32,000 nucleotides of DNA from Rhodobacter capsulatus SB 1003 (lineage in GTDB: Bacteria; Pseudomonadota; Alphaproteobacteria; Rhodobacterales; Rhodobacteraceae), in NCBI RefSeq assembly GCF_000021865.1, contig NC_014034.1, forward strand, positions 1,320,001-1,352,000, given 5' to 3'. Below are positions 3,284 to 29,802 of the stretch, in pieces (within the stretch, counting starts at the first letter, position 1; each line of letters begins with the position of its first letter). Under the pieces are notes generated by a model, which was given only the letters and a program-made list of their open reading frames with translations, ran no database searches and had not been told where the DNA came from. The translations under genes and the position numbers were made by a program.

Positions 3284-4393
3284 CTAGGGCGCGGCGTTGA
3301 TGGCAAGAACCATATCCATGACCAGCGTCGCCGGGTCAAGGTTGACCGCCTTGCCATGCCGCGCCCGCGCGCCCAGATCCTGATGCAGCCCGGCCCATTT
3401 CTGCGCCGCCGCGCCATCGGGGCAAAGGCGCGTCAGCAGCGCGGCCTCGCCCGGGGCGGCCTCGGGTTGCGGCGCCCCGGTCAGACCGGCGCGGGCCAGA
3501 CGGGCCAGAAACAGATCCATCAGGCCGAGCATCAGATCGAACCGCGCCTCGTTGCCGCGCCCGGTCATGCCCTCGGCCAGCGCCCAGGCCTTTTGCCGGT
3601 CGATCCGCGGCAGGCCGGTCATCAGGCCCACCAGCGCCCGGTAAGCCTCGAGCCCGTCGAGATTGATCAGCCGGATCGCCTCGCCGACCGACCCGCCCGC
3701 AAGGGCCGAGAGGGCGAGCGTGTCCTCGGTCTCGGCCCCCGCGCCCTGCAGCGCCTGCGCCAGATCCTCGGGGGCCAGCGCCGCAAGCCGCAATTCGCGG
3801 CAGCGCGAGCGGATGGTGGGCAAAAGCCGCGCGGGCTGGTGCGTGACCAGCAGGAAGGTGACCAGAGGCGGCGGCTCTTCCAGAAGTTTCAGCAGCGCAT
3901 TCGCCCCGGCCGTGGCCAGTTCGTCGGCGGCATCGACAATCACCACGCGCCGTCCGCCATCGGCCGCGGACAGATGCAGGAACGAGGTCAGCTTGCGCAC
4001 CTCGACCACGCGGATGTCTTCCGACAGCGCGGTTTCCTTGTCATTCGGGCCGCGCTTGAGATGGAACAGCCGCGGCTCGGCCCCCGCCATGATCCGGCGG
4101 CAGACCGGGTGCTCGGGGTCAGACTCCAGATTGCGCACCGGCTCGGGGGCGCCGAAAAGCCCGCCGCCGTCTTCCAGCGGCTGGCTCAGCAGGAACCGCG
4201 CCAGCCGCCAGGCCAGCGTCGCCTTGCCCACGCCGCGCGGGCCGGTCAGCATCCAGGCATGGTGCAGCCGGTGCGAGGTGAAGGCGGTCAGGAAATCGGC
4301 CTCGGCCTTTTCCTGGCCGTAAAGATGCAGGGTCTGGCGCGGATGCGGGGCGCCTTCGACCTGGGTCGGATCGGGCAGCTCGTCGCGGCTCAT
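3284..4393 (-). CDS. holB: DNA polymerase III subunit delta'
   Basis: 369 aa with AAA+ clamp-loader P-loop region LTGPRGVGKATLA and VVIVDAADEL (Walker B-like). 4-nt overlap with tmk upstream. Confidence 0.85.
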   Translation of the reverse strand: MSRDELPDPTQVEGAPHPRQTLHLYGQEKAEADFLTAFTSHRLHHAWMLTGPRGVGKATLAWRLARFLLSQPLEDGGGLFGAPEPVRNLESDPEHPVCRRIMAGAEPRLFHLKRGPNDKETALSEDIRVVEVRKLTSFLHLSAADGGRRVVIVDAADELATAGANALLKLLEEPPPLVTFLLVTHQPARLLPTIRSRCRELRLAALAPEDLAQALQGAGAETEDTLALSALAGGSVGEAIRLINLDGLEAYRALVGLMTGLPRIDRQKAWALAEGMTGRGNEARFDLMLGLMDLFLARLARAGLTGAPQPEAAPGEAALLTRLCPDGAAAQKWAGLHQDLGARARHGKAVNLDPATLVMDMVLAINAAP

Positions 4394-7357: not shown

Positions 7358-7447
7358 GGAAGTGTGGCCGAGTGGTTTAAGGCTCTGGTCTTGAAAACCA
7401 GCGAGGGGGAGACCCCTCCGTGGGTTCGAATCCCACCGCTTCCGCCA
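7358..7447 (+). tRNA. tRNA-Ser (anticodon UGA), class II with long variable arm, CCA encoded
   Basis: Acceptor GGAAGTG/CGCTTCC. Ser-type D-arm TGGCCGAGTGGTTTAAGGC. Anticodon stem CTGGT/ACCAG with loop CTTGAAA. Variable arm GAGGGG-GAGA-CCCCTC. T-arm GTGGG-TTCGAAT-CCCAC. G discriminator plus CCA. Confidence 0.92.
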
Positions 7448-7449
7448 CC
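7433..7449 (+). repeat. attL core: CCACCGCTTCCGCCACC (last 15 nt of tRNA-Ser plus 2 nt)
   Basis: Exact 17-bp match to 23314-23330 in the same orientation. Confidence 0.8.
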
Positions 7450-7516
7450 AAAATCCCCTTAAGTTGTTGAAATAAAAGGGCATATATGCCACCCTTGACC
7501 TTATCCCGCCATTTCT

Positions 7517-7547
7517 GCATGACATTGTGCGTGACATTTCGCATGAC
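7517..7547 (+). promoter_or_regulatory. Three direct GC(A/G)TGAC repeats at exact 12-nt spacing (candidate integrase arm-type sites)
   Basis: GCATGAC 7517, GCGTGAC 7529, GCATGAC 7541. The 12-mer TGCGTGACATTT (7528-7539) recurs exactly at 23243-23254 near the other island end. Confidence 0.5.
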
Positions 7548-7557
7548 GGGGTTAGTG

Positions 7558-8856
7558 ATGCTGGTGATGCGGGGAAGCGTGTGGCACCTTATTCGGCGGG
7601 TTCCGAAGCGCTATGCGGGGGTTTCCGAACAGGGGCGGCAAGTGTCGTTGAGCTTGCGGACGGACAGCCGGATCGAGGCCGAGGCCAAAGCCAAAGCGGC
7701 TTGGGATGCCTTGTTGATGGCATGGGAAGCACGGTTGCGGGGCGATACGACCGACGCCCGCGCACGATATGACGCGGCATTGAATATCTGCGCGCAGCAC
7801 GGCTATCGCTACCAGTCGCTCAAGAAGATCATGGCGATGCCGGTGGAGGACCAAGTCGAGCGCATCAATCGCATCCCACAGCGCATGGGAGAGCCGAACA
7901 AGGTCGTCGCGGACGCCCTGCTTGGTGTGACCGAGCCACCGAAGATGACGCTGAGCGAGACGCTGGCCGAGTTTCGCAAGTCGGTCGAGCCGATCAAGAC
8001 GCTCAAGATGACCCCGGACCAGTTGCGCAAGTATCGCAATCCCCGCGACAAGGCGTTTCGGAACCTCATCGCGGTCGTGGGGGATATCCCGCTGGCCGAC
8101 CTGACCCGCACGAATCTGATCGAGTTTCGGTCGTGGTGGCTGACGAAGATACAAGAGGAAGACCTGCAGACCGACTCCGCAAACAAGGACCTCACGCACC
8201 TCAAGTCCGTCATCGAGGCCGTGATCGATACGCTGGCCCTTCCGTTTCCCTCACCTTTCGTGGGCAAGTCGATCAAGTTCCCCAAGTCCGAAGCCGAGAC
8301 CCGCCCCGAGTTCTCCACCGATTGGATCAAGCAGAAGTTGCTTGCCCCCAAGGCGTTGGACGGGCTCAACGACGAGGCCCGGGGAATCCTGCTCGCCATG
8401 ATCAACACCGGAGCCCGCCCGAGCGAACTCTGCGCTCTGCGCCCCGAGGACATCAAGCTGACCGACAACATCCCTCACATCTGCATCAGTGCCGCGCACC
8501 GTCGCACCAAGACGCGCAATTCTGTGCGGCAAATCCCTTTGGTCGGGGTCAGTCTGGAGGCGATGCAGCGTTTCCCGAACGGCTTTCCGCGTTATGACGA
8601 CAAGGCCGCCACCCTGTCGGCGACGGTCAACAAGTATTTGCGGGAGGCGGGGCTGATGGAAACCGAAAACCACACCCTCTACTGCCTTCGGCACAGGCTG
8701 GAGGGTGTGCTCCGGCGCGCAGGTGCCGACGGGCGGGTGCGGCGCATGATCTTCGGACATGCTCGCAACGCCGATGTCGAGGAGCGCGACCGGCCCGATT
8801 ACGGACAGGTCCATCTTGTCGAGTTGCAGGATGCCTTGCGGTTGGTGGCGATCTAG
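7558..8856 (+). CDS. Tyrosine-type site-specific integrase
   Basis: C-terminal catalytic region ARPSEL...LRHRLE...FGH...DY matches the R..H-x-x-R..H..Y pattern. Adjacent to the tRNA. Co-linear paralogue at 23470-24735. Start moved from 7486 to the ATG at 7558, because 7486-7557 holds the arm repeats and the paralogue begins at the equivalent position (MTIMRRGKG...RRVPQRY vs MLVMRGSVW..RRVPKRY). Confidence 0.85.
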   Translation: MLVMRGSVWHLIRRVPKRYAGVSEQGRQVSLSLRTDSRIEAEAKAKAAWDALLMAWEARLRGDTTDARARYDAALNICAQHGYRYQSLKKIMAMPVEDQVERINRIPQRMGEPNKVVADALLGVTEPPKMTLSETLAEFRKSVEPIKTLKMTPDQLRKYRNPRDKAFRNLIAVVGDIPLADLTRTNLIEFRSWWLTKIQEEDLQTDSANKDLTHLKSVIEAVIDTLALPFPSPFVGKSIKFPKSEAETRPEFSTDWIKQKLLAPKALDGLNDEARGILLAMINTGARPSELCALRPEDIKLTDNIPHICISAAHRRTKTRNSVRQIPLVGVSLEAMQRFPNGFPRYDDKAATLSATVNKYLREAGLMETENHTLYCLRHRLEGVLRRAGADGRVRRMIFGHARNADVEERDRPDYGQVHLVELQDALRLVAI

Positions 8857-15245: not shown

Positions 15246-15548
15246 AGTCGTCTCCCTTGATGCGTAATCGCTCTGGGAGACGGCGGGAGACGAAAAGGGT
15301 GATCGGCGGGGGCATGGTGTCACCTGTGCTGGCGCGGTTTGATGCACAGATCGGGGGCCGATCCTCGGTGCCTCTTATACACCACCACCAAGAGCAGGAC
15401 AGCCGTGAATGAGGCGGGCCAAGGGAATTGCAGGGCGATAACGGCCGCCGATCTCGTTGCGCCAAGACTGTCGTCGGGACGATTTGCACCTTGCCGGTGG
15501 ACCGTATGGTCTGGTCTAAAGGGCGTAGCAGTTGGCGGGGGTATTGCG

Positions 15549-17342
15549 ATGACGGAGCTTGTGTTCAAGGGCAAGGAATTTGTTTGGAACCATCACCTTG
15601 CGGTGCCGTTCCGGCCCTTGGTCGTGCAGGCGGAGAAGGGGATCGGCGAGGCTCGGCTCGACGGCAACCTGATCATCCAGGGCGACAATCTGCACGCGCT
15701 CAAGGCGTTGATGCCGATGTATGCGGGCAAAGTTGACTGCATCTTTATCGACCCGCCCTATAACACCGGGAACGAAGGCTGGGCCTACAACGACAACGTG
15801 AATGCCCCGATGATCAAGGAGTGGCTGAACTCCAACCCCATCGGCATCGAAGACGGGCTGCGCCACGACAAATGGTGCGCGATGATGTGGCCCCGACTGC
15901 GTCTGCTACATGAGTTGCTGGCAGAATGGGGAAGTATCTGGATTACGCTTGACGACAACGAGGCGCATCGCGCGAAAATCCTGCTGGATGAGATATTTGG
16001 GGAAGATGCTTTTGTCGCAAATATGGTGTGGCAGAAGCGGTATGTTGCAAACGTGACTGCGCTTCATCTTTCCGACATGCACGACCACGTTCTTGTCTAT
16101 GCTAAGAACCCGTCTGAATTCGCTTTGGGGAAAATCGGCAGAACTGAAGCACAGGCTGCTGATTACAAAAACCCCGACAATGACCCGCGCGGCCCTTGGC
16201 GCGCTCAAGACCTGTCCGCCAGTAAGCAATATCAAGCAGGCATTTTCACAATAACCGGTCCCGATGGAGCTACGTTTGATCCTCCACCGAACCGCTATTG
16301 GCGGATGAACCGCGCGCAATACGACAAATGGCTTGCGGAGGGGCGCATCAGCTTTGGTGTGACGGGGAAAGGCAGGCCGATGTTGAAGCGGTTCCTGACA
16401 GAAGCACAAGACGGCCTCACGCCTGTAACATGGTGGAGCCATGATTTCGCTGGTCACAATAAAGAAGCAACACTGGAAATGAAGGACATCTTCGATGGTG
16501 CGTCCCCCTTCGACACGCCAAAGCCGAAGCGTTTAATTTCTCGCATACTCGAATTGATTGGCGACGACGATGCGCTTGTTCTCGATTCCTTCGCGGGTTC
16601 CGGCACGACCGCCCATGCCGTCCTTGAAGCCAACAAGCGCGACGGCGGTAGCCGCCGTTTCATCCTCTGTGAAATGGAAGACTATGCCGACCGTCTGACC
16701 GCCGAACGGGTGCGGCGCGTGATCAATGGCTATGCTTTCACCGGCACTCAGAAAACCGAACTTGCCCGCGAAAGGCTGAACTGGCGCTCCATCGAGAAGG
16801 CCGCCGATCTGGTCCACAAGGTGCAGGCCATCGAAAACCTGCACGGGCACGAATACGATCGGATCAAGAAGGAGGTGAAGGACGGGGAGCTTGTGGTGAC
16901 GGGCGAAAAGGCCGTGAGCGAACAGGCCGAGGGACTGGGTGGCACATTCACCTATTGCACGCTGGGCGACCCGGTCGAGCTTGACCGCATCCTGACAGGC
17001 GAAGACCTGCCCACCTTCGAGGCGCTTGGCCCCGTGCTTTACCACATGGCCACTGCCGAAGTGGCAGACCCCGCCGTGCTGAACGCAGTCGATTTCTACC
17101 TTGGCGAGGCCAGCGCCTACATCCTCTGGCTCATCTACAAGCCTGATCTGGAATGGCTCAAGTCAGCCGACGCCGCGCTGACCCTTTCCTTCGCGCGCGG
17201 CATTCACGAACTGCGTCCCGACAAGAAGCACCTTGTCTTCGCGCCCGCCCGCCATGTCAGCCAACGGATGCTGGACAGTGAGGGCTTGGGGGTAGAGTTC
17301 GCGCCCTTGCCCTTTGCCCTTTACCGGGTGGAGCGGGGCTGA
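15549..17342 (+). CDS. mod: Type III restriction-modification DNA methyltransferase (Mod; N6-A/N4-C class, beta-type motif order)
   Basis: Motif IV DPPYNTGNEGWAYNDN precedes motif I SFAGSGTTAHAV. The N-terminus LIIQGDNLHALKAL is typical. ATGA overlap with res. Start placed at MTELVFKGKEF (15549) rather than the track start at 15339. Confidence 0.9.
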   Translation: MTELVFKGKEFVWNHHLAVPFRPLVVQAEKGIGEARLDGNLIIQGDNLHALKALMPMYAGKVDCIFIDPPYNTGNEGWAYNDNVNAPMIKEWLNSNPIGIEDGLRHDKWCAMMWPRLRLLHELLAEWGSIWITLDDNEAHRAKILLDEIFGEDAFVANMVWQKRYVANVTALHLSDMHDHVLVYAKNPSEFALGKIGRTEAQAADYKNPDNDPRGPWRAQDLSASKQYQAGIFTITGPDGATFDPPPNRYWRMNRAQYDKWLAEGRISFGVTGKGRPMLKRFLTEAQDGLTPVTWWSHDFAGHNKEATLEMKDIFDGASPFDTPKPKRLISRILELIGDDDALVLDSFAGSGTTAHAVLEANKRDGGSRRFILCEMEDYADRLTAERVRRVINGYAFTGTQKTELARERLNWRSIEKAADLVHKVQAIENLHGHEYDRIKKEVKDGELVVTGEKAVSEQAEGLGGTFTYCTLGDPVELDRILTGEDLPTFEALGPVLYHMATAEVADPAVLNAVDFYLGEASAYILWLIYKPDLEWLKSADAALTLSFARGIHELRPDKKHLVFAPARHVSQRMLDSEGLGVEFAPLPFALYRVERG

Positions 17343-19951
17343 TGCGGACGCTTGACTATCAGGAACGGGTTCTGCGCACGCTGGACGACTATCTGGACGA
17401 GTTGAAGGCGCAGAAGGTGCAGGCCGACCAGATCGACGCTGTGCGCGCGGCCAACCCGAACTTGGCCATCCCGCCCTTGGATTTCTGCGCAAAGGCTTGG
17501 GAGAACCTGAACGCGGTGAAGCCGCTGCCGGTGCGAAAGTTCAAGGACGGCACGGTTGTTCCCTTCTCGCCGCGTGTCGACGGTATCGGACGGGCGGTGC
17601 CCAATGTCACCTTCAAGGTGCCCACAGGCGGCGGCAAGACATGGCTGGCCGTGAATGCCGTTTCCCGCATCATGGGGCGGTATCTGGGCAAGAACGAGGG
17701 CTTCGTGCTGTGGGTGGTGCCGAACGAGGCGATTTACACCCAGACGCTCAAGCGCCTGAAAGACCGGCAGCACCCCTATCGTCAGGCGCTGGACCGCGCG
17801 GCGGCGGGCCGGGTGAAGGTGATGGAGAAGGGTGACCGGCTGGACGCGCGGGATGTGGAAACGCATCTGTGCGTCATGGTGCTGATGTTGCAGGCGGCGA
17901 ACCGGCAGACGCAGGAAACCTTGCGGATGTTCCGCGACCGGGGCGATGTGCACGGGTTCTTCCCGCCCGAGGGGGATCAGGCGGCCCATGCGGCAGAGTT
18001 GAAAGCAGTGCCCAATCTGGACGGCTATCAGGGCATGTTCCCGATGGTGAAGGACAGTCTGGGCAACGCACTGCGGAAAATCCGCCCGGTGGTGGTGATG
18101 GATGAGGGGCAGAAGGCTACTTCAGACCTCGCCAACAAGACGCTTTACGACTTCAACCCGCTCTTTGTGCTGGAACTGACCGCCACGCCCAAGGATGTGA
18201 CCGCCAAGGGCGGCGGGGCGCGCTATGCCAACCTGTTGGTGGAGGTGACGGGGCGCGAGTTGCACGCCGAAGACATGATCAAGATGCCGCTGAACCTTGA
18301 ACCCCGGCAGGGCACGGATTGGCGGGGCACGCTGACGGCGGCGCTGGACCGGCTGAACACCTTGCAGGCGGCGGCAGACGCCTACCGGGCCGACAGGGGC
18401 GAGTTGGCCTATATCCGCCCCATCATGCTGGTGCAGGTGGAGCGGACGGGAAAGGATCAGCGCGACGGGGTGCATATCCACGCCGAAGACGTGAAGGAAT
18501 GGCTGCTGCAAGCGGGGCTGGACGAGGCGCAGATTGCCATTAAGACCGCCGAACAAAACGACCTGAGCCAGCCCGAGAACCAAGACCTGCTTTCGCCAGC
18601 GAACCGAGTGCGGGTGATCGTCACCAAGGCGGCGCTGCAAGAGGGCTGGGATTGCCCCTTTGCCTATGTGCTGTGTTCGCTGGCCGCAGCATCGAACCTG
18701 TCCGCCATGACGCAGCTTGTGGGCCGCATCCTGCGCCAGCCCTATGCGCTGAAAACCAAGGTGTCCGCGCTGGACGAATGCTATGTCATCACGCACCATG
18801 CCGGAACGCGCGAGGTCGTGGAGGCCATCAAGGCAGGGCTCGAAAAGGACGGCTTGGCCGATCTGGTCATCGAAGTGCCAGCGGGCACGGGGGCTACAGC
18901 ACCCGGAACGCAGCGCCGCGTTGAACGGCGGGCAGAGTTCAAAAGTCTGAAAGTCTATCTGCCCAAGGTCCTTTGCGACGATGGCGGAGCGTTGCGCGAC
19001 CTGGACTACGAAACCGACATCCTGTCGGCCATTGACTGGCGCGATTACGACCCAAGCGCAGTGGCACAGGCCATCCCAGAAAACCCGTTGCTGGCCGCAG
19101 CGCAGTTGCAGCGGATCAGCCTGACGGATGGGGGGTCCGATTACTTCCGTCAGGAGGAAATCGCCGCCGCATCAGAGACGCTGCGCTACGATCCATCCTA
19201 TGCTGTGCGCGTCATCTCCGACCTTGTTCCAAACCCGTTTGTGGCGCGGTCGATACTCGGTCGCTTGGTGGACGTGCTGAAGGCGCGCGGCTTTGACGAC
19301 AAGAAGCTTGGGGCCGCGTCGGGCGTCATCGTGGATGCCCTGCGGCTTGCGCTCGATAAGGAACGCACGACACGGGCAGAGGCGCTGTTCAAGGCAGGGG
19401 TCAAAGCGGGCCGTATTCAGTTCCGGCTACGACTGGATGGCAACAACTGGGTGATGCCCGAGACAATAACGACCTTTGAGCCGGACCTTTCCCCGCACAT
19501 GACAGGGGGCGATGGCGGGCCTCTGAAACGCAGCCTGTTCTCGCCAGTGTTCCGCAACGAACTGAACACCGAGGAACAAGGGGTTGCCGTCCATCTCGAC
19601 GGGGAGGCCGCTGTGAAATGGTGGCATCGCAACGTCGCCAAGACCAACTATGGCATCCAAGGTTGGCAGCGCGGGCGCATCTATCCCGACTTCATCTTTG
19701 CAACGGGTTGCGCGGGCGGTAATGGGCGCATCGTGATGTTGGAAACCAAGGGCGACCATCTTCAGAACCCGGACACCGACTACAAGCGCGAGGTTCTGGA
19801 CTTTTTGACGGAGAACTTCTCGTGGGATCAAGCCGTGCCCGCCGGTCAACTACAGATTACCCAAACAGGCGAAACTCTGGAGTGCGCGCTGGTATTGATG
19901 AGGGACATCCCGGCGCGGCTCCCCGTTCTGATTGCTGGCCACGAACCGTGA
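17342..19951 (+). CDS. res: Type III restriction endonuclease Res subunit (SF2 helicase plus PD-ExK nuclease)
   Basis: Helicase motifs VPTGGGKT (I), VVMDEGQ (II), LTATP (III), QEGWDCP (V) and QLVGRILRQ (VI). C-terminal nuclease-like IYPDF...VMLETKG. Confidence 0.9.
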   Translation: MRTLDYQERVLRTLDDYLDELKAQKVQADQIDAVRAANPNLAIPPLDFCAKAWENLNAVKPLPVRKFKDGTVVPFSPRVDGIGRAVPNVTFKVPTGGGKTWLAVNAVSRIMGRYLGKNEGFVLWVVPNEAIYTQTLKRLKDRQHPYRQALDRAAAGRVKVMEKGDRLDARDVETHLCVMVLMLQAANRQTQETLRMFRDRGDVHGFFPPEGDQAAHAAELKAVPNLDGYQGMFPMVKDSLGNALRKIRPVVVMDEGQKATSDLANKTLYDFNPLFVLELTATPKDVTAKGGGARYANLLVEVTGRELHAEDMIKMPLNLEPRQGTDWRGTLTAALDRLNTLQAAADAYRADRGELAYIRPIMLVQVERTGKDQRDGVHIHAEDVKEWLLQAGLDEAQIAIKTAEQNDLSQPENQDLLSPANRVRVIVTKAALQEGWDCPFAYVLCSLAAASNLSAMTQLVGRILRQPYALKTKVSALDECYVITHHAGTREVVEAIKAGLEKDGLADLVIEVPAGTGATAPGTQRRVERRAEFKSLKVYLPKVLCDDGGALRDLDYETDILSAIDWRDYDPSAVAQAIPENPLLAAAQLQRISLTDGGSDYFRQEEIAAASETLRYDPSYAVRVISDLVPNPFVARSILGRLVDVLKARGFDDKKLGAASGVIVDALRLALDKERTTRAEALFKAGVKAGRIQFRLRLDGNNWVMPETITTFEPDLSPHMTGGDGGPLKRSLFSPVFRNELNTEEQGVAVHLDGEAAVKWWHRNVAKTNYGIQGWQRGRIYPDFIFATGCAGGNGRIVMLETKGDHLQNPDTDYKREVLDFLTENFSWDQAVPAGQLQITQTGETLECALVLMRDIPARLPVLIAGHEP

Positions 19952-20003: not shown

Positions 20004-20639
20004 TCACATCCCCCACCGTGCTAGAGCGGCCTCGGCCTGCGCCGGGTTCTCTCTTATCCGCAGGATGGCTTGCCGCGAAATTCCGGTCGCCTTGCTGATC
20101 TCGGACGCTCCCGCGCCGTTGTCGAGCATGTCTCGCACGACGATCAGCTTGCTGCGATCGAAGGTCGGCTTCTTGCCACGGTAGCGGTTGCCATTAGCCT
20201 TCGCCGCCTCGATACCAGCGCGCTGCGCCTCTCGCAGCGCCTCTGCTTGGGCTTGGGCCGTGGCAGCCATAAACGCGATCATCGAGTCCCGCACCGCCTG
20301 CTGCACCGGATCAGAGGTAGAGCCGTCGAAGGTCATGTTGTTGATGACCGTCCGGACGATGACCCCCTGCTGCATGAAATGCCGCACGACTTCGGTGACA
20401 TCGGTGTAGTTGCGGCCAAGCCGGTCGAGCCAGCGCACGACCAGCACGTCGCCCTTCCGAAGGAGATCGAACAATCGACGCCCCTCGGCTCGCTCGCGCA
20501 ATCGAGTGCTGACGCCGGACACACCGTGGTCGGCAACCACTTCGTCGATCACGAAGCCTGCCATCTCGGCTTGGGTGCGCTGGTGAGAGAGCGTCTGATC
20601 CGCAGTGGACACGCGGGCGTAAAGAACGGTGCGGCTCAT
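20004..20639 (-). CDS. Serine recombinase (resolvase/invertase family)
   Basis: MSRTVLYARVSTADQ catalytic-Ser motif, VVRWLDRLGRN, and a C-terminal HTH (ISKATGISRQAILRI). Start at 20639 is preceded by GGAGGAA. The track ORF to 20957 is an upstream extension. Confidence 0.9.
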   Translation of the reverse strand: MSRTVLYARVSTADQTLSHQRTQAEMAGFVIDEVVADHGVSGVSTRLRERAEGRRLFDLLRKGDVLVVRWLDRLGRNYTDVTEVVRHFMQQGVIVRTVINNMTFDGSTSDPVQQAVRDSMIAFMAATAQAQAEALREAQRAGIEAAKANGNRYRGKKPTFDRSKLIVVRDMLDNGAGASEISKATGISRQAILRIRENPAQAEAALARWGM

Positions 20640-20649
20640 GTTCCTCCGG

Positions 20650-20690
20650 ATGTCCGTTAAGGTGATGTCCGTTAATTCGCATGTCCGTTG
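20650..20690. repeat. Three direct ATGTCCGTT(A/G) repeats immediately upstream of the recombinase start
   Basis: ATGTCCGTTA at 20650, ATGTCCGTTA at 20665, ATGTCCGTTG at 20681 (15-16 nt spacing). Confidence 0.6.
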
Positions 20691-21004
20691 ATGCGTGTCA
20701 ACCTCTATGGATACCCCAGTTGGGCGGCTTCGGGGTGACCGTTGGGGTATGGTTGAGCGGACGACCGAATGCGAGGAGGATTGTAGGACGCGCTGTGTGC
20801 GAGAAGCAACGAATGTTCCATATTTGAAGACGCGTCGCTTTGTGGCTATGGACAGTTCATGAACGATGAAGCAAACAACTCCAGCGTGCGGGGAGACTCT
20901 GCAGTCGGTCCATGCGGGCTTTACTTGTGAAGGATAGGCGCTCAGCCTAGCTGGCATGCCTATAGGTTAGCTGATCCGTTTCGGAAAGGCCAACCTACTC
21001 TCGT

Positions 21005-21655
21005 ATGAGGGGTAGATTATCTGATTTCTATGCCCCGCACGCACAGAGCTATTGGAGATTAAAGGTGACGAACGTTTCCGGCATAAACTCGCCGACCCCG
21101 GATAAATCCCTTGCAGATAAGATTTGGTTAACCTCTCATTGCAGAATGAACGCGGAGAGGAGGAATCGACGCTACGAAATTTGGGCTACAATCGAGTTGT
21201 CGTCGGTTTCAGTTGGAATAATTGGCCTGACCACATTCCGCGATCGACTGGGTGCCTTCCCTGTGGACGAATATACTTTGATACTTTCAATTATGACTCT
21301 TGTAATATCTACGCTGATTGCCGGAGCGAAATTTGGCGAGCGAGCGGCTACGTTCAGGGAATGCTACCTTCAACTTGAAAGGCTGAATGCCAGCAAGCAA
21401 GACCTGCAAGAAAAAACCTCAGAGTATAATGCGATACTGGCATCATACCCGAACCACTCGGACATTGATTACACATCTCTAATCATATCGAGAACTCTGT
21501 GGCGAAATCAGGAACTATGCGACCCACGAGGCAGATCAATCACATGGACGTGGGGAACTCTTGGTTCTTGGATATTGTATATTTTCGTGGAGGTGCTGGT
21601 ATATTTGGTTCTTCCTGCCTTGGTTTTTCTGCCTGCCGCCGTTCTCGCTTGGTGA
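21005..21655 (+). CDS. SLATT-like 2TM membrane protein (putative effector partner of the RT)
   Basis: Two adjacent hydrophobic helices (IWATIELSSVSVGIIGLTTF and LILSIMTLVISTLIAGAKF) are followed by a helical segment (RECYLQLERLNASKQDL...YNAILASYP) and a C-terminal TM. This layout resembles SLATT domains. The start is uncertain: ATG 21005, or GTG 21065 preceded by GGAG. Its stop abuts the RT start. Confidence 0.5.
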   Translation: MRGRLSDFYAPHAQSYWRLKVTNVSGINSPTPDKSLADKIWLTSHCRMNAERRNRRYEIWATIELSSVSVGIIGLTTFRDRLGAFPVDEYTLILSIMTLVISTLIAGAKFGERAATFRECYLQLERLNASKQDLQEKTSEYNAILASYPNHSDIDYTSLIISRTLWRNQELCDPRGRSITWTWGTLGSWILYIFVEVLVYLVLPALVFLPAAVLAW

Positions 21656-23008
21656 GTGCTGCAGATGGGGTCAAAGGAAACTTTTTGCGCGCTGTTTAAC
21701 CCAAAGGAACTTCAAGACATATTTGATAAGTCTGTTGCGCTGAAGGGGGCCATCGGGCGCGATGGCCAATCAGTGGAAGCATTCAGAGGGCGCATAAAGG
21801 ACGAGCTTTCCCTCATCGAACGGAAGGCGCTGAATTGCACATACAAATTCACCGCCTACAGTGAAAAATTGGTTTCCAAAGGTGCAGGGAAAAGGCCGAG
21901 ACAGTTGTCTAAGCCGACCGTTCGAGACAAGGTAACACTCAAGGCGCTATCGAAGATACTGGTCTCATTATTCCCTTCTGCCATTCCCGCAACCCCCCAC
22001 TCAATAGTGAGGGATGCTTTGGGCATTATAAGGGGTGAATTCGGTGAATTTTATTACGTTCGACTTGATATTCAAGAGTTCTTCCCGTCAATCGACCACG
22101 ACATACTAATGCGGCTACTTAGGAGGCGCATTAGGTATCGCCCTATTCTTCATTTGGTTAAGGATGCAATTAGAACGCCAACAGGCGTGAAGAAAAGTGA
22201 GGGCTCGCTTAACCAAGTTGGCATCCCGCAAGGCTTGAGTATATCAAGCGCTTTGGCGTCAATATATTTGGCTGATATGGATGAGGAATTGAGTTCCCTA
22301 TGCAGCGGTCGCTACTTTCGTTATGTTGATGATGTGCTGTTCGTGTGCAAGCCCTCGGAAGCTGAAGAAATAGCCAGACGCGCGACCGAAATATTACAAA
22401 AAAAACGCAAGATCAGTTGTCATCCTGTCGGGACTGGCGGCAAGAGCGTAATTGTTCCAGGTGCTCAAGGCATCGATTACATAGGCTATCACTTCTCGCC
22501 CGGTCTCCTGCGTGTTCGAACCTCGTCAGTGCGTAAGTATTTGGGCGTAATGGTGACGGAGTTCTCGAAGTGCAAACAGGCAGGACTTGCGGGGAGCAGG
22601 TTGTGGCGACTGAATCTTCGGATCACTGGCTGTATTTTTGATGGAAAACGAATTGGCTGGATGTTTTTCTTTTCTCAGACGGAGGACGTGTCACAGTTGA
22701 AGCGGATTGATGCGTTCATCAAGTCGCGTGCTGGTTTGGTTTCGGGTCAAGCGGAGGCTTCTAGGGTCAAAAGACTTGTTCGAGCTTATCATGAAATTAA
22801 ATACAATCTGCACGGGACTAAATACATCCCCAATTTTGACAAATATGGGCTTGAGGATAAGAGGCGAGATATTTGTCTGCTGGCCCCCCACTTATTTTCT
22901 GCTCGTGTTGAAAGCATGACGGCAGACGAAATAAACGCTGCATTCCGAACTTGCATTAACAAGGAAATCTCGGATATCGAGAAAGACCTGCTTGAGGCAT
23001 TTTCGTAA
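21656..23008 (+). CDS. Reverse transcriptase (standalone, non-retron-looking; UG/Abi-like or group-II-like lineage)
   Basis: RT motifs in order: YVRLDIQEFFPSIDH (motif A), GIPQGLSISSALASIYL (motif B), YFRYVDDVLFV (YxDD) and IDYIGYHF. About 150 aa of C-terminal extension. Start is GTG 21656 or ATG 21665. Confidence 0.85.
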   Translation: MLQMGSKETFCALFNPKELQDIFDKSVALKGAIGRDGQSVEAFRGRIKDELSLIERKALNCTYKFTAYSEKLVSKGAGKRPRQLSKPTVRDKVTLKALSKILVSLFPSAIPATPHSIVRDALGIIRGEFGEFYYVRLDIQEFFPSIDHDILMRLLRRRIRYRPILHLVKDAIRTPTGVKKSEGSLNQVGIPQGLSISSALASIYLADMDEELSSLCSGRYFRYVDDVLFVCKPSEAEEIARRATEILQKKRKISCHPVGTGGKSVIVPGAQGIDYIGYHFSPGLLRVRTSSVRKYLGVMVTEFSKCKQAGLAGSRLWRLNLRITGCIFDGKRIGWMFFFSQTEDVSQLKRIDAFIKSRAGLVSGQAEASRVKRLVRAYHEIKYNLHGTKYIPNFDKYGLEDKRRDICLLAPHLFSARVESMTADEINAAFRTCINKEISDIEKDLLEAFS

Positions 23009-23242
23009 TGTTCGCCAGAATGACGTAGGGCGTTGCCCGACGTCCATTTCGCGTCTGCCGCACATATTCGGTGTATGGAACCTGGCCATAGCAATTTTCT
23101 AATCGGACTTAGCCTAAATTCTGAATGCTACCGGCTTTTCCATCGGGCGGGGATGTCATCTCGTTCAGGAGCGCCCCGCCCATCTGGCCCGCCGAAGCGC
23201 TTCCGGTTGGGCGCTCAGGGGCATCGTGTGCGTATGACATCT

Positions 23243-23254
23243 TGCGTGACATTT
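23243..23254 (+). promoter_or_regulatory. Right-end copy of the TGCGTGACATTT arm-type motif
   Basis: Exact 12-mer shared with 7528-7539. A related TGCGTATGACAT sits at 23229-23240. About 60 nt inside attR. Confidence 0.45.
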
Positions 23255-23313
23255 TGGAGGGCGGGCGAACGATAACCTTTTGAAATATAAAGGAATCGTT
23301 GGAGCGGCGACGT

Positions 23314-23330
23314 CCACCGCTTCCGCCACC
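23314..23330 (+). repeat. attR core: CCACCGCTTCCGCCACC
   Basis: Exact direct repeat of 7433-7449. No tRNA body precedes it. Confidence 0.8.
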
Positions 23331-23469
23331 TCACATTGCCGCGCAAGAAAATAAATCACTATAATTCATATGCTTAGACAATAATTCAATCTCGCGGAAA
23401 TCTAAGTCCCCTTGATATCGCTCCGCAAAACGCCACACAATATGCTCCACATTGATCTGTGAGGGCATC

Positions 23470-24735
23470 ATGACGATCATGCGGCGGGGCAAGGGGTTGA
23501 GTCTGCGCAGGCGGGTGCCGCAGCGCTATCGGCCGGTCGAGCCGCGCACCGAGATCTGGCTCAGCCTGCATACGGATTCCGAAACCATCGCCAGCCAGAA
23601 GGCGCCCCGGATCTGGCACGAGCAGATCGAGGCCTGGGAAGCGAAGCTCGCGGGCGACAGCGCGGAGGCCGAGGCGCGCCATGCCGCCGCGCGGCGCCTC
23701 GCAGAGGTGCGGGGCTATCGCTATCTGACCGCGGACAAGGTGGCGAGCCTGCCGCGCAGCGCGCTTCTCGAGCGGGTCGAGGAGGTGGCCCGGCGCGGTG
23801 CCGATCCCTCCGAGGCGTCCGCCCTTCTCGGCGGCGAGGCCGAGCCGCCGATCACCGTCAGCCGGGCGCTCGAGCTTTATTGGGGTTTCGCACGCGATCT
23901 GGTGCTGAACAAATCCCCCGATCAGCTCCGCCGCTGGCGCAACCCGCGCATCAAGGCGGTGAAGACCTTCATTGATGTGATCGGCGACAAGCCCCTCGCC
24001 CAGATCACCCGCGACGACATGCTCGCCTTCCGCGAGTTCTGGCTCAACCGGATCGAAGAAGAGGGCGTCAAGCCCAATAGCGCGAACAAGGACCTCACCC
24101 ATCTTGGCGGCGTTCTGCGCATGGTCGTCGAAAAGAAGAAGCTGGCCATCGTGCTGCCTTTGGGCGGGCTTGCCCTGAAAGAGGGAGACAAGGCGCAGCG
24201 CCTGCCGTTTTCGGACGGCTGGATTCGCGATCGCCTCTTGGCCCCGGGGGCGCTCGACGGGATGAACGACCAGGAGCGCTGCATCTTGCAGGTGGTGATC
24301 AACACCGGAATGCGGCCCAGCGAGGTTGCGGCGTTGCGGTCCACAGAAATCGCGCTGGATGTCGCCGTGCCGCATCTGTCGCTGCAGCCGATCGGGCGGG
24401 AATTGAAATCGGCGTCAGCGCGGCGGGTGATTCCGCTCTTGGGCATTGCCCTTGCCGCGATGCGTGCCTTCCCCTAGGGGTTTCCGCGCTATCGGGAAAA
24501 CTCTGCCAGCCTGAGCGCCGCGATGAACAAGTACCTGCGCGGCAACGGGCTGATGGAGACGCCTCGGCATACGATCTATTCGCTGCGCCACGCTTTCGAG
24601 GACCGGATGCTTGCCGCGCGCATCGACGAGCGGATCCGGCGCGATCTGATGGGCCATTCGCTCGGCCGCGAGCGCTACGGCTTAGGTGCCTCGCTCGAGC
24701 ATGCCGCCGAATTGCTGGTGCCGATCTCGTTCTGA
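23470..24735 (+). pseudogene. Tyrosine integrase paralogue interrupted by one in-frame TAG (24475-24477)
   Basis: ORFs 23452..24477 and 24523..24735 are in the same frame. ...AMRAFP*GFPRYRENSASLSAAMNKYLRGNGLMET aligns with the integrase-1 segment ...AMQRFPNGFPRYDDKAATLSATVNKYLREAGLMET. The catalytic LRHAFE / MGHS / RYG lie downstream of the stop. Confidence 0.8.
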
Positions 24736-27027: not shown

Positions 27028-27285
27028 ATGCCGAGAACGATCCACACCGAAGGCCAGCGGGCGCTTTGCGAGGCGATCGCCGCCGCCCGCCGGGAGAAAG
27101 GGCTCAACCAGGCCGATCTCGCCCGCGAACTTCATTGCCAGCAATCGCTGATCGCGCGCATCGAATCCGGCGAACGGCGGATTGATGTGCTGGAGTTCAT
27201 CAAGATTTTCCGCGCGCTTGGTGTGTCTCCGGCGGAGGCGCTTCGGCGTGTGGGCGAGCAGATTCCTGCGGATCAAGGCATCTGA
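27028..27285 (+). CDS. XRE-family helix-turn-helix transcriptional regulator
   Basis: 85 aa. REKGLNQADLARELHCQQSLIARIESGERRIDVLEFIKIFRALGVSPAE matches the Cro/C1-type HTH pattern. Confidence 0.85.
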   Translation: MPRTIHTEGQRALCEAIAAARREKGLNQADLARELHCQQSLIARIESGERRIDVLEFIKIFRALGVSPAEALRRVGEQIPADQGI

Positions 27286-27481
27286 AGTCGGCGCTTCCGG
27301 CATTGCAGAACGCCGTTTGCGGCGACGCAGGGCTTTGACGCTGCCCAGATCCATCGGGTCTTGCGCCCGACGGGGGGACGGAGGTCATCCACGACGGCGG
27401 CTGCAACCGGGGCGCATTGCGCTGCGGCGGCTTTCCTGTAACCTGCGGCAAATTCTTGTGTTGCCGTCAGGTGTTCCGCGC

Positions 27482-29284
27482 ATGACCATTGATCTCGGCC
27501 CCATCCAGACCAGAGCCGCTCAGGAGATTGCCGTCGGCGGGCTGCGCGTCTGGTATCATCTGCCCTTTGCCCTCCTTGATGACGGCATCGATCCGGCCCG
27601 GCACGGCTGGGTTGCGGAAAAGCCCAAAGGCACGCTGCAACAGCAGTTCTACTTTCATCCTTTCGTGTCGAATGCGCTTTGGGACCGGGCCGATGGCGGC
27701 GTCTCGGCGTTGTTCGACCTCTATCGCAAACCGGCGTTCGAGTTCCGGCATTTCACCGCCGACTTCGACTCGACCGACTGGAAAGAGATGCAAGATGGCA
27801 AATCGGAGCAACTGCTGTGCCGTCGCACCTTTCGCGGCACGGTGCGCACGGTTGAACTGCGGCGCCTGCGCGAACCGGCCGGGTCCGGGCGGCAGAGCGG
27901 TTTGCACGGCTTTGCCATGCTGGTCGTCAGCGTCGATTTCCTTTGTGCTGCCTATGGCGAATATCCGCGCGACAAGGTAAAGGACCCGGCCCCCTTCGCC
28001 CCGCTGACGCTGGCCGATGCGCAAGATGCGTTGGATCTGTCACGGCGCATCTTTCCGCGCTGGCATTTCTACGGCGAGGATGCACTGCCGGGGGATGCGC
28101 TGACGAGGGTGCCCTGTTTCGGGCCTGCCCCGTCGCGTCCCGAAATGGACGAAGGGGTGCGCAAGGGAAAGACGCAGCTGATGCCCTGGGTGCGCGAACT
28201 TGTTGCCCCCTTCACCCTCTCGGAACCGGATTCGCGCCATTTCGGCGACGAACGCGCCTTCATCACCTCGGCTGTGCTCTTGGGCGATGGCAGCGAACAG
28301 GAGGCCGAGGCCTTCACCCTGATGACCCGGGTCAAGGACAGCGACCTGATGCGCTTGGCCGAGGTGGACCGGCGTGGCACGGGCTACAGCTACAACAAGC
28401 CCTTCCTCGACGCACTCGCACCGGGGTATTTCTACACCCGACAGGCCCCCGATGGCCCCACCGGCACCGGCAATTCCACGCTTTACATCACCGCCTCGCA
28501 CCATTTCTGCGCCCTAGGCGCGGGCGGGTACATGCGCAACGTGATCCTGGGCAACGGCATCCCGGGCCATCACGACATGGGCCATGCCGAGGAATATTAC
28601 CGCCACATGCAGTTTCTGTGCGTGTTCGAATTCTTCCGCCTGCTGCAATTCTCCCAGACCCTGTCGGAACTGGTGCGCAGCCAGCGCGAGCGCGGGGCGA
28701 TCGGCGACAAATCCCGAACGGCGGTGGCGGATTTCGGTCAGCGGCTGATGCGGATCCGCGACGAATTCCTTGACTTCACCCACCTGCACCACTTCTCCAA
28801 CATCTCCTCGCAACTGCAACCGCGCGAGATGTTCGACCGCCTCTATGCCGCCTTCGGCATTCCCGCGATGTTTGCCGAGGTCGAAAAGGAACTCGAGGCG
28901 GCGACGAGTTTCCACGAGATGCACACCAATGCCGAGGCGCGCGAGGATGCGGCGCGGCTCAACAAGCTGGTGTCGGTCGGCGTGCCGTTGTCGCTGTTGG
29001 TCGGCGCGGGGGGGATGAACATCTTCATCGGTGACAAGGCCCCGTTCGGGTTGCACGCGATCGTTCCGGCCCTCCCGGGGCAGACCGATGCGGCGGGGCC
29101 GCCCGATGGCTGGCTGCAACTGCTGCAACTCTCGGTGCTGGTGGCGATCATCGCCGGGATCTGGGCTTTGGCCGAGCGGGTCTATTTCCGCGACAAGCGG
29201 TCCTTCTGGGGCTGGCTGGCCTATGGTGCGGCGGCGGCGGCCTTTGCGGGCAGCGAGGCGCTGCATCTGTGGCCCGCGCCTTGA
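27482..29284 (+). CDS. CorA-family membrane protein with a large N-terminal domain (candidate CRISPR-associated effector)
   Basis: The C-terminus matches CorA architecture: LNKLVSVGVPLSLLVGAGGMNIF (TM1 ending in the GMN signature), a short loop, then TM2 LQLSVLVAIIAGIWALAERVYFRDKR. About 480 aa of soluble N-terminal region. Start placed at the ATG at 27482 (MTIDLGPIQ), because the track's TTG at 27182 overlaps the XRE gene. Confidence 0.7.
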   Translation: MTIDLGPIQTRAAQEIAVGGLRVWYHLPFALLDDGIDPARHGWVAEKPKGTLQQQFYFHPFVSNALWDRADGGVSALFDLYRKPAFEFRHFTADFDSTDWKEMQDGKSEQLLCRRTFRGTVRTVELRRLREPAGSGRQSGLHGFAMLVVSVDFLCAAYGEYPRDKVKDPAPFAPLTLADAQDALDLSRRIFPRWHFYGEDALPGDALTRVPCFGPAPSRPEMDEGVRKGKTQLMPWVRELVAPFTLSEPDSRHFGDERAFITSAVLLGDGSEQEAEAFTLMTRVKDSDLMRLAEVDRRGTGYSYNKPFLDALAPGYFYTRQAPDGPTGTGNSTLYITASHHFCALGAGGYMRNVILGNGIPGHHDMGHAEEYYRHMQFLCVFEFFRLLQFSQTLSELVRSQRERGAIGDKSRTAVADFGQRLMRIRDEFLDFTHLHHFSNISSQLQPREMFDRLYAAFGIPAMFAEVEKELEAATSFHEMHTNAEAREDAARLNKLVSVGVPLSLLVGAGGMNIFIGDKAPFGLHAIVPALPGQTDAAGPPDGWLQLLQLSVLVAIIAGIWALAERVYFRDKRSFWGWLAYGAAAAAFAGSEALHLWPAP

Positions 29285-29551: not shown

Positions 29552-29802
29552 GCCCAGATACCTCTCCCGCCAGTAAGCGGATTGAGACGTCGATCCGGTC
29601 TCAAGCTGCGCCTGCGTCACGGCCCAGATACCTCTCCCGCCAGTAAGCGGATTGAGACACGGGGGCGGCGGCGAGGCAGGCGAAGGCGGCGGCGCCCAGA
29701 CACCTCTCCCGCCAATAAGCGGATTGAGACTGCGTCACCTCCGATCAGCGCGAGGATGCGATCAGGCCCAGACACCTCTCCCGCCAGCAAGCGGAGTGCG
29801 TG
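29552..29802 (+). CRISPR. CRISPR array: four 37-nt repeats and three spacers (33, 35, 35 nt), last repeat degenerate
   Basis: R1 = R2 = GCCCAGATACCTCTCCCGCCAGTAAGCGGATTGAGAC (29552, 29622). R3 (29694) has 2 mismatches. R4 (29766) loses the 3' ATTGAGAC. The repeat contains a CCGC-loop-GCGG hairpin followed by the 8-nt tag ATTGAGAC. An A-rich leader lies at about 29290-29551. Confidence 0.9.

Follow-up and report, generated by a model that had tools for sequence, protein, structure and literature searches.

A 32,000-nucleotide (nt) segment of the Rhodobacter capsulatus SB 1003 genome (NC_014034.1, positions 1320001-1352000; hereafter the window, in which all coordinates below are given unless an accession is named) very probably carries a complete and apparently intact anti-phage cassette of the DRT10 type (UG17, class 2 UG/Abi), consisting of a structured non-coding RNA (ncRNA), a gene for a SLATT_5 membrane protein and a gene for a reverse transcriptase (RT), in that order and all on the forward strand (Table 1). 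Mestre et al. 2022 (PMC9226505) described a strong association of UG17 RTs with SLATT and predicted a role in defence. Tang et al. 2025 (PMC12632851) named the combination DRT10 and reported that it protects E. coli, and Sanchez-Nieto et al. 2026 (bioRxiv 10.64898/2026.04.29.721553) analysed it further. In the characterised systems, an ncRNA of 137-143 nt is located 5' of the SLATT gene, and the two protein components are SLATT and the RT (PMC12632851; bioRxiv 10.64898/2026.04.29.721553).

The cassette is an already catalogued member of this known, experimentally characterised system. Tang et al. (PMC12632851) list NC_014034.1 1341665-1343008 (+) in their Table S1 as UG17_locus_849, flagged TRUE for 'SLATT associated' and FALSE for 'ncRNA associated'. 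The present analysis contributes the ncRNA and its coordinates, a correction of the SLATT start, a candidate for the template and the island boundaries. The discovery value is small, since a defence role of UG17 with SLATT had been predicted in 2022 and was demonstrated under the name DRT10 in 2025-26, and the locus itself is tabulated; the practical gain lies in the SLATT start, the RNA coordinates and the template prediction for a locus that had been scored as RNA-less.

The reverse transcriptase and its SLATT partner

A preliminary description of this locus had proposed a defence-associated RT of the UG/Abi type next to a SLATT-like membrane protein, and profile searches bore out both assignments. 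The RT matched the PADLOC profile RT_UG17 with E = 2.9e-135 (449 bits), its residues 5-447 aligning to profile positions 2-426 of 429, while the second-best match, a generic RT profile (5.6e-34), was weaker by ~100 orders of magnitude. Further weaker matches were obtained with Drt3a (7.6e-29), Drt2 (1.4e-25) and Drt9 (3.2e-14). This relatedness, together with the fact that SLATT also accompanies UG3+UG8 and UG28 (PMC9226505), would be in keeping with a different class 2 UG system, DRT3-, DRT9- or DRT2-like, in which the product would be a homopolymer, poly(dTdG) or a concatenated gene and SLATT a mere accessory. We regard such an assignment as exceedingly improbable: the UG17 profile wins over the full length and by the margin given above, the locus has a single RT rather than a UG3+UG8 pair, the candidate template loop described below contains neither a U-run nor an ACAC repeat, and both the RNA architecture and the C-terminal Ser fit DRT10.

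The catalytic YVDD motif (22322-22333) is followed by GIDYIGYHF, confirming the earlier observation of IGY after YVDD. A retron identity was rejected on the IGY found in place of VTG, the lack of a retron RNA in the Rfam search and the best profile being UG17. An origin from a retron or a group II intron, that is, from a mobile or multicopy single-stranded DNA-producing retroelement, is suggested by certain database names that read 'retron-type' or 'maturase family', and is nevertheless given next to no credence here. Pfam recognised RVT_1 alone in the protein (E = 4.8e-17), with no maturase, endonuclease/nuclease or X domain, and retron and group II profiles were absent from the leading PADLOC matches. 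Rfam 15, searched at gathering thresholds in the whole window and at E <= 1 in 20560-23520, returned tRNA alone, with no retron or group II RNA (Intron_gpII and group-II-D1D4 included) and no family on the ncRNA, in agreement with the earlier statement that intron RNA domains are lacking. The conserved RNA that does lie 5' of SLATT has a different architecture.

WP_013067000.1 of R. capsulatus SB 1003 and the RT are one and the same protein (100% identity), which was found on at least 24 R. capsulatus contigs (assemblies and read sets, in an index of 183 blocks), in the same context throughout. The nearest other RTs are ~48% identical. The RT of Eco3DRT10 aligns colinearly over the whole length with 31% identity (E = 5e-79). 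Every residue that is invariant among 27 close relatives is retained in the window RT. The protein ends in ...LEAFS, the last two residues, F-S, being invariant across these relatives, and a Ser or Tyr is located at the C-terminus or at most 2 residues from it in nearly all RT relatives. The reported DRT10 priming residues are Ser in Eco3 (S456, the last of 456 residues) and Tyr in Eco1 (PMC12632851). Because the priming residue of Eco3DRT10 is the last of its protein, the terminal Ser of the window RT (codon 23003-23005) is a candidate priming residue by analogy.

The SLATT protein aligned to positions 2-191 of the 192 in Pfam SLATT_5 (E = 6.2e-46), also matched PADLOC RTasSLATT (E = 3.7e-56), and has two hydrophobic segments, residues 67-91 and 164-196. 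As had been noted before, the two genes abut: the SLATT stop codon TGA (21653-21655) is directly followed by GTG 21656, so that the gap is 0 nt if the RT starts there or 9 nt if it starts at ATG 21665. The pairing is also conserved. Relatives of the RT were gathered from 8 genome loci, the yield of an exact-pattern genome scan with a single RT that gave distant loci, and from 80 metagenome loci supplied by an alignment-based scan; most of these 88 loci have SLATT immediately 5' of the RT.

In its longest form, the first forward open reading frame (ORF) spans 21005-21655 and the second 21656-23008. The preliminary description had placed the SLATT start at ATG 21005, leaving ~365 nt of non-coding DNA upstream, and some automatic gene calls of R. 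capsulatus contigs do the same. The gene most likely begins at GTG 21065 instead, which extends the upstream spacer to 425 nt (20640-21064). This revision is based on four observations. ATG 21005 sits in the apical loop of SL5, a conserved hairpin of the RNA; SLATT in the relatives starts 3-15 residues ahead of a DKIW motif, a distance of 17 residues for GTG 21065 and 37 for ATG 21005; a GGAG is found 9 nt 5' of GTG 21065; and the SLATT sequence given for this locus in Table S1 of Tang et al. (PMC12632851) begins at the same GTG.

The cassette is AT-rich relative to its surroundings, as described earlier, although the values first given (40-45% GC against 65-70% in the flanks) had to be corrected: GC content is 47.5% in the SLATT gene, 47.7% in the RT gene, 52-55% in the spacers and 64-65% in the flanks, with a mean of 49% for 20884-23451 and 63% for the whole window.

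A conserved structured RNA upstream of the SLATT gene

The non-coding DNA on either side of the gene pair had been proposed to encode a template or regulatory RNA. A conserved structured RNA was indeed found upstream, although not at the 8-bp stem that had been pointed out, and overlapping the 5' end of the SLATT ORF as first drawn. The stem itself exists as an inverted repeat, ATACCCCA/TGGGGTAT (20711-20718/20743-20750), but is at chance level: 0.18 perfect 8-bp stems are expected in the upstream spacer, and 12% of Markov shuffles contain at least one. It lies 134 nt 5' of the conserved RNA, outside it. The downstream spacer (23009-23313) had no Rfam match and no match to the covariance model described below; it ends at an att-like repeat and is more likely the end of an island than an RNA gene.

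The RNA was located by a search for long-range helices in the 300 nt 5' of the SLATT DKIW motif, which gave a covarying helix of 9-17 bp enclosing 122-150 nt in 24 of the 29 loci inspected. The covariation is illustrated by the pairs GTGTGCGGGG/CTCCGCACAC, TGGGTGGACG/CGTCCACCCA and TGGGGCTAAGCG/CGCTTAGCCTCA in different relatives. An RNAalifold consensus was computed from a MAFFT alignment of 23 relatives that excluded the window, and comprises an 11-bp basal helix (P1) with four hairpins and a ~22-nt single-stranded loop preceding the 3' strand of P1. Compensatory changes were present in 28 of the 30 consensus pairs; 94.7% of the cells were paired, compared with 35-50% when partners were slid by 1-3 columns, and none of 500 shuffles reached any of these measures.

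A covariance model, R1, was built from the same alignment without the window sequence. Searched against both strands of the 32 kb, R1 gave a single match, at 20884-21042 (+), equivalent to NC_014034.1 1340884-1341042, covering model positions 1-130 of 130 (25.7 bits, E = 1.2e-4). The model also matches ~20 loci outside its training set, always on the coding strand and just 5' of SLATT, and some relatives with a terminal Tyr are matched as well, at 27-34 bits. The window RNA has a minimum free energy of -69 kcal/mol (z = -3.5), and P1, SL2, SL3 and SL5 are all formable, the cmsearch alignment placing SL5 on the last hairpin of R1, as a stable stem immediately 5' of the candidate template loop. 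The role of SL5 as the 5' boundary of the template is taken from Tang et al. (PMC12632851). Relative to the consensus, the window RNA has a 51-nt insertion that replaces the short SL4 and forms two extra hairpins in the minimum free energy structure; should this expansion be functional, it might serve as an additional platform for binding protein or RNA, of a kind that the E. coli models lack.

A scan of 20500-23600 for consensus promoters and terminators gave nothing above shuffle expectation, and the 'terminator-like' site it placed at 20907-20920 was discarded as being SL3 of the ncRNA. In the relatives, a reading of the sequences shows a -10-like element that directly abuts P1, and in those labelled L012, L002, L013, L033, L058 and L020 a T-run lies within a few bases 3' of the P1 3' strand, where P1 may double as the intrinsic terminator of the ncRNA. 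The experimentally probed ncRNA segment of E3659 had no match in the viral contigs searched.

The relative from Chelativorans salis (L002, NZ_JAOCZP010000002.1) is marked in Table S1 of Tang et al. (PMC12632851) as having neither SLATT nor ncRNA. In this locus, tblastn located a SLATT ORF (3457-3981 of that contig) directly 5' of the RT, and R1 scored 101 bits at 3284-3421, in the spacer. On account of this locus, the published flags seem to undercount in the alphaproteobacterial branch. A plausible though still tentative reading is that the first published models miss a DRT10 ncRNA variant, to which the RNA of R. capsulatus and, in a wider sense, those caught by R1 in alphaproteobacteria would belong; in R. 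capsulatus it carries a lineage-specific two-hairpin expansion of SL4 and would template an 8-nt repeat, (AGATAATC)n.

Candidate template and proposed mode of action

DRT10 RTs prime on their own C-terminal Ser or Tyr and synthesise long tandem repeats of 7-9 nt from a short A-B-A' template, located in the loop that follows a stable hairpin (PMC12632851; bioRxiv 10.64898/2026.04.29.721553). In the window RNA, the single-stranded loop after SL5 (21012-21032) reads GUAGAUUAUCUGAUUUCUAUG. A pattern search on the loops of the relatives' alignment (A3) gave GAUU-AUCU-GAUU as the longest A-B-A' pattern in this loop, and the relatives L009, L047 and L058 have period-8 patterns at the equivalent position. 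From this template a tandem 8-nt complementary DNA (cDNA), (AGATAATC)n, is predicted. Other registers are present, UCU-GAUU-UCU (7 nt) and UAU-CUGAUUUC-UAU (11 nt), and would give repeats of AATCAGA and ATAGAAATCAG instead.

By analogy with what Tang et al. 2025 and Sanchez-Nieto et al. 2026 describe for E. coli homologues, we hypothesize that the RT associates with the ncRNA, uses its own C-terminal Ser as the primer of DNA synthesis and copies a short template in the loop just 3' of SL5, here most likely GAUUAUCU. The nascent DNA would then slip back onto the downstream GAUU copy in a telomerase-like manner, giving long single-stranded (AGATAATC)n. Infection would alter the level or form of this repeat DNA by way of a host single-stranded DNA exonuclease and phage SSB-like proteins, and the altered DNA would control SLATT, which would damage the membrane and abort the infection.

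Several points weigh against an intact DRT10 cassette that works in this way. The phenotype is known from E. coli homologues, and the nearest tested homologue of the RT, that of Eco3DRT10, has just 31% identity to it. The window gives the weakest R1 match (25.7 bits) and requires the 51-nt insertion in place of SL4, which relatives at 44-47% RT identity lack. The published covariance models detected no ncRNA at this locus (Tang et al. Table S1, PMC12632851), probably because of this insertion. No sigma-70-like promoter was found 5' of the ncRNA in the consensus scan, and P1 of the window is not followed by a T-run, unlike that of several relatives. As for the template, three registers are possible, and an A-B-A' pattern with A of at least 4 nt is expected by chance in shuffled loops (P = 0.38); the pattern was dropped as independent evidence after this shuffle test, 38% of shuffled loops having one.

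The low score with its large insertion, the failure of the published models to flag an ncRNA and the lack of a promoter-like site would all be expected of a decayed or silent DRT10 remnant, in which the ncRNA, divergent and enlarged by a 51-nt insertion, would have lost the ability to bind the RT or act as a template, so that no defence results, while the genes would be intact by chance or have been inactivated in the recent past; and the neighbouring integrase has an in-frame stop, so that the region is partly decaying. We nonetheless judge a remnant improbable. Both ORFs are of full length, with the residues invariant among the 27 relatives all kept, P1 is a perfect 10-bp helix with SL2, SL3 and SL5 all formable, and the identical protein recurs in the same context on each of the R. 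capsulatus contigs mentioned above. An intact DRT10 cassette is thus retained as the preferred reading.

Genomic island and comparison with known systems

The features of the cassette and its surroundings are collected in Table 1. The 17-nt direct repeat of the tRNA-Ser 3' end is the sole exact repeat of at least 17 nt in the window besides a CRISPR-like array, and its two copies are the att-like ends of a predicted ~15.9 kb island integrated at tRNA-Ser, of which DRT10 is the last cargo.

Table 1. Coordinates of the DRT10 cassette, the elements of its RNA and other features of the island in the window
Feature	Position	Strand	Basis or remark
DRT10 ncRNA, 159 nt	20884-21042	+	Covariance model R1 match, long-range helix, fold
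Basal helix P1, 10 bp perfect, GCGTGCGGGG/CCCCGCACGC	20884-20893 with 21033-21042	+	Helix search, model R1
SL2	20895-20906	+	Part of ncRNA
SL3	20907-20920	+	Part of ncRNA
Expanded SL4 region	about 20934-20996	+	Part of ncRNA
SL5 core hairpin CUCUC-GUAU-GAGGG	20998-21011, extendable to about 20995-21014	+	cmsearch alignment, minimum free energy fold
Candidate A-B-A' template GAUU-AUCU-GAUU	21015-21026	+	Pattern search on loops of alignment A3
SLATT_5 membrane effector gene	21065-21655	+	196 aa from GTG 21065; longest ORF from ATG 21005, 216 aa
UG17/DRT10 reverse transcriptase	21656-23008	+	450 aa from GTG 21656, or 447 aa from ATG 21665 (NCBI start)
tRNA-Ser(tga)	7358-7447		Rfam
17-nt direct repeat CCACCGCTTCCGCCACC of tRNA-Ser 3' end	7433-7449 and 23314-23330	+	Exact repeat search
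DUF6538/phage-integrase gene	7486-8856		In island
Large ORF, 923 aa	10843-13614	-	Between integrase and type III restriction-modification genes
Large ORF, 409 aa	14031-15260	+	Between integrase and type III restriction-modification genes
Type III restriction-modification pair	15339-17342 and 17342-19951		In island, next to the cassette
Serine recombinase (resolvase)	20004-20639	-	Pfam Resolvase, E = 1.4e-26; divergent from cassette

The same island arrangement was seen in every R. capsulatus contig inspected. The DRT10 module alone is AT-rich within the island, which suggests that it entered the island separately. Immediately 5' of the resolvase start, three direct copies of GATGTCCGTTAA (the third reading CATGTCCGTTGA) are located at 20649-20691, 15-16 nt apart, and may be binding sites for a recombinase or a regulator. 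The two large ORFs that precede the restriction-modification genes were recognised by neither Pfam nor PADLOC, and may be additional defence cargo.

Right after the second att-like repeat lies another DUF6538/phage-integrase gene (23470-24735), which an in-frame TAG (24475-24477) splits into gene calls of 335 and 70 amino acids. Since the split recurs in other R. capsulatus assemblies, this gene probably represents a pseudogene left from a tandem island that has decayed. Further downstream, a 700-aa protein (27182-29284) matched the PADLOC profile of a CorA-like CRISPR-associated membrane effector (E = 1.7e-128), and after it come four 37-nt repeats at a spacing of 70-72 nt (29552-29802), which form a small CRISPR-like array. 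On the R. capsulatus contigs L089 and L090, gene calls place ORFs over the downstream region, and one product from L090 had a weak match to the Cas10 palm domain.

The closest known systems are the DRT10/UG17-A cassettes of Escherichia (Eco1-3DRT10, PMC12632851; E3659, bioRxiv 10.64898/2026.04.29.721553), which have the same order of ncRNA, SLATT_5 and RT with tightly coupled genes, and an RT with YVDD and a Ser at its end. Their RNA is likewise built of a basal helix around small hairpins, with a single-stranded loop after a stable hairpin that holds the template (a candidate one in the window), and they too are located in a mobile island, beside a tyrosine recombinase and other defence genes. 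The window RNA is longer, 159 nt compared with 137-143 nt, the surplus being the 51-nt two-hairpin expansion of SL4, and its predicted repeat unit is the 8-nt AGATAATC, compared with the 9-nt GAATCATTG or the 7-nt AGTAATA in Escherichia. The window copy belongs to an alphaproteobacterium. Two features of the UG17-A subtype (Sanchez-Nieto et al. 2026), the SLATT-RT order and the Pseudomonadota host, fit the window cassette. The RNA component reaches the alphaproteobacterial branch, which supports the view of the three parts as universal in DRT10. With an RT of 31% identity and an enlarged SL4, the cassette is a divergent natural variant whose host is genetically tractable, and it would lend itself to probing the generality of telomerase-like repeat addition.

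Among the sister class 2 UG systems, DRT9 (UG28) and DRT2 (UG2) also have an ncRNA-templated RT that makes repetitive cDNA, as proposed for DRT10. DRT9 is in addition protein-primed, with an ncRNA whose shape is similar to that of DRT10 according to Tang et al. (PMC12632851); unlike DRT10, it copies a U-run template into poly(dA), primed from a Tyr in a hexamer. DRT2 differs in being RNA-primed and in producing a 120-nt rolling-circle concatemer. In neither DRT9 nor DRT2 is SLATT needed as the main effector, in contrast to DRT10.

A more distant parallel is drawn by Tang et al. (PMC12632851) with telomerase (TERT with TER), where, as in DRT10, a short template is copied repeatedly, a helix forms the 5' boundary and realignment takes place on a repeated segment; an evolutionary link between the two is a claim of those authors. 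DRT10 differs from telomerase in being protein-primed, compact and bacterial, and in serving in defence.

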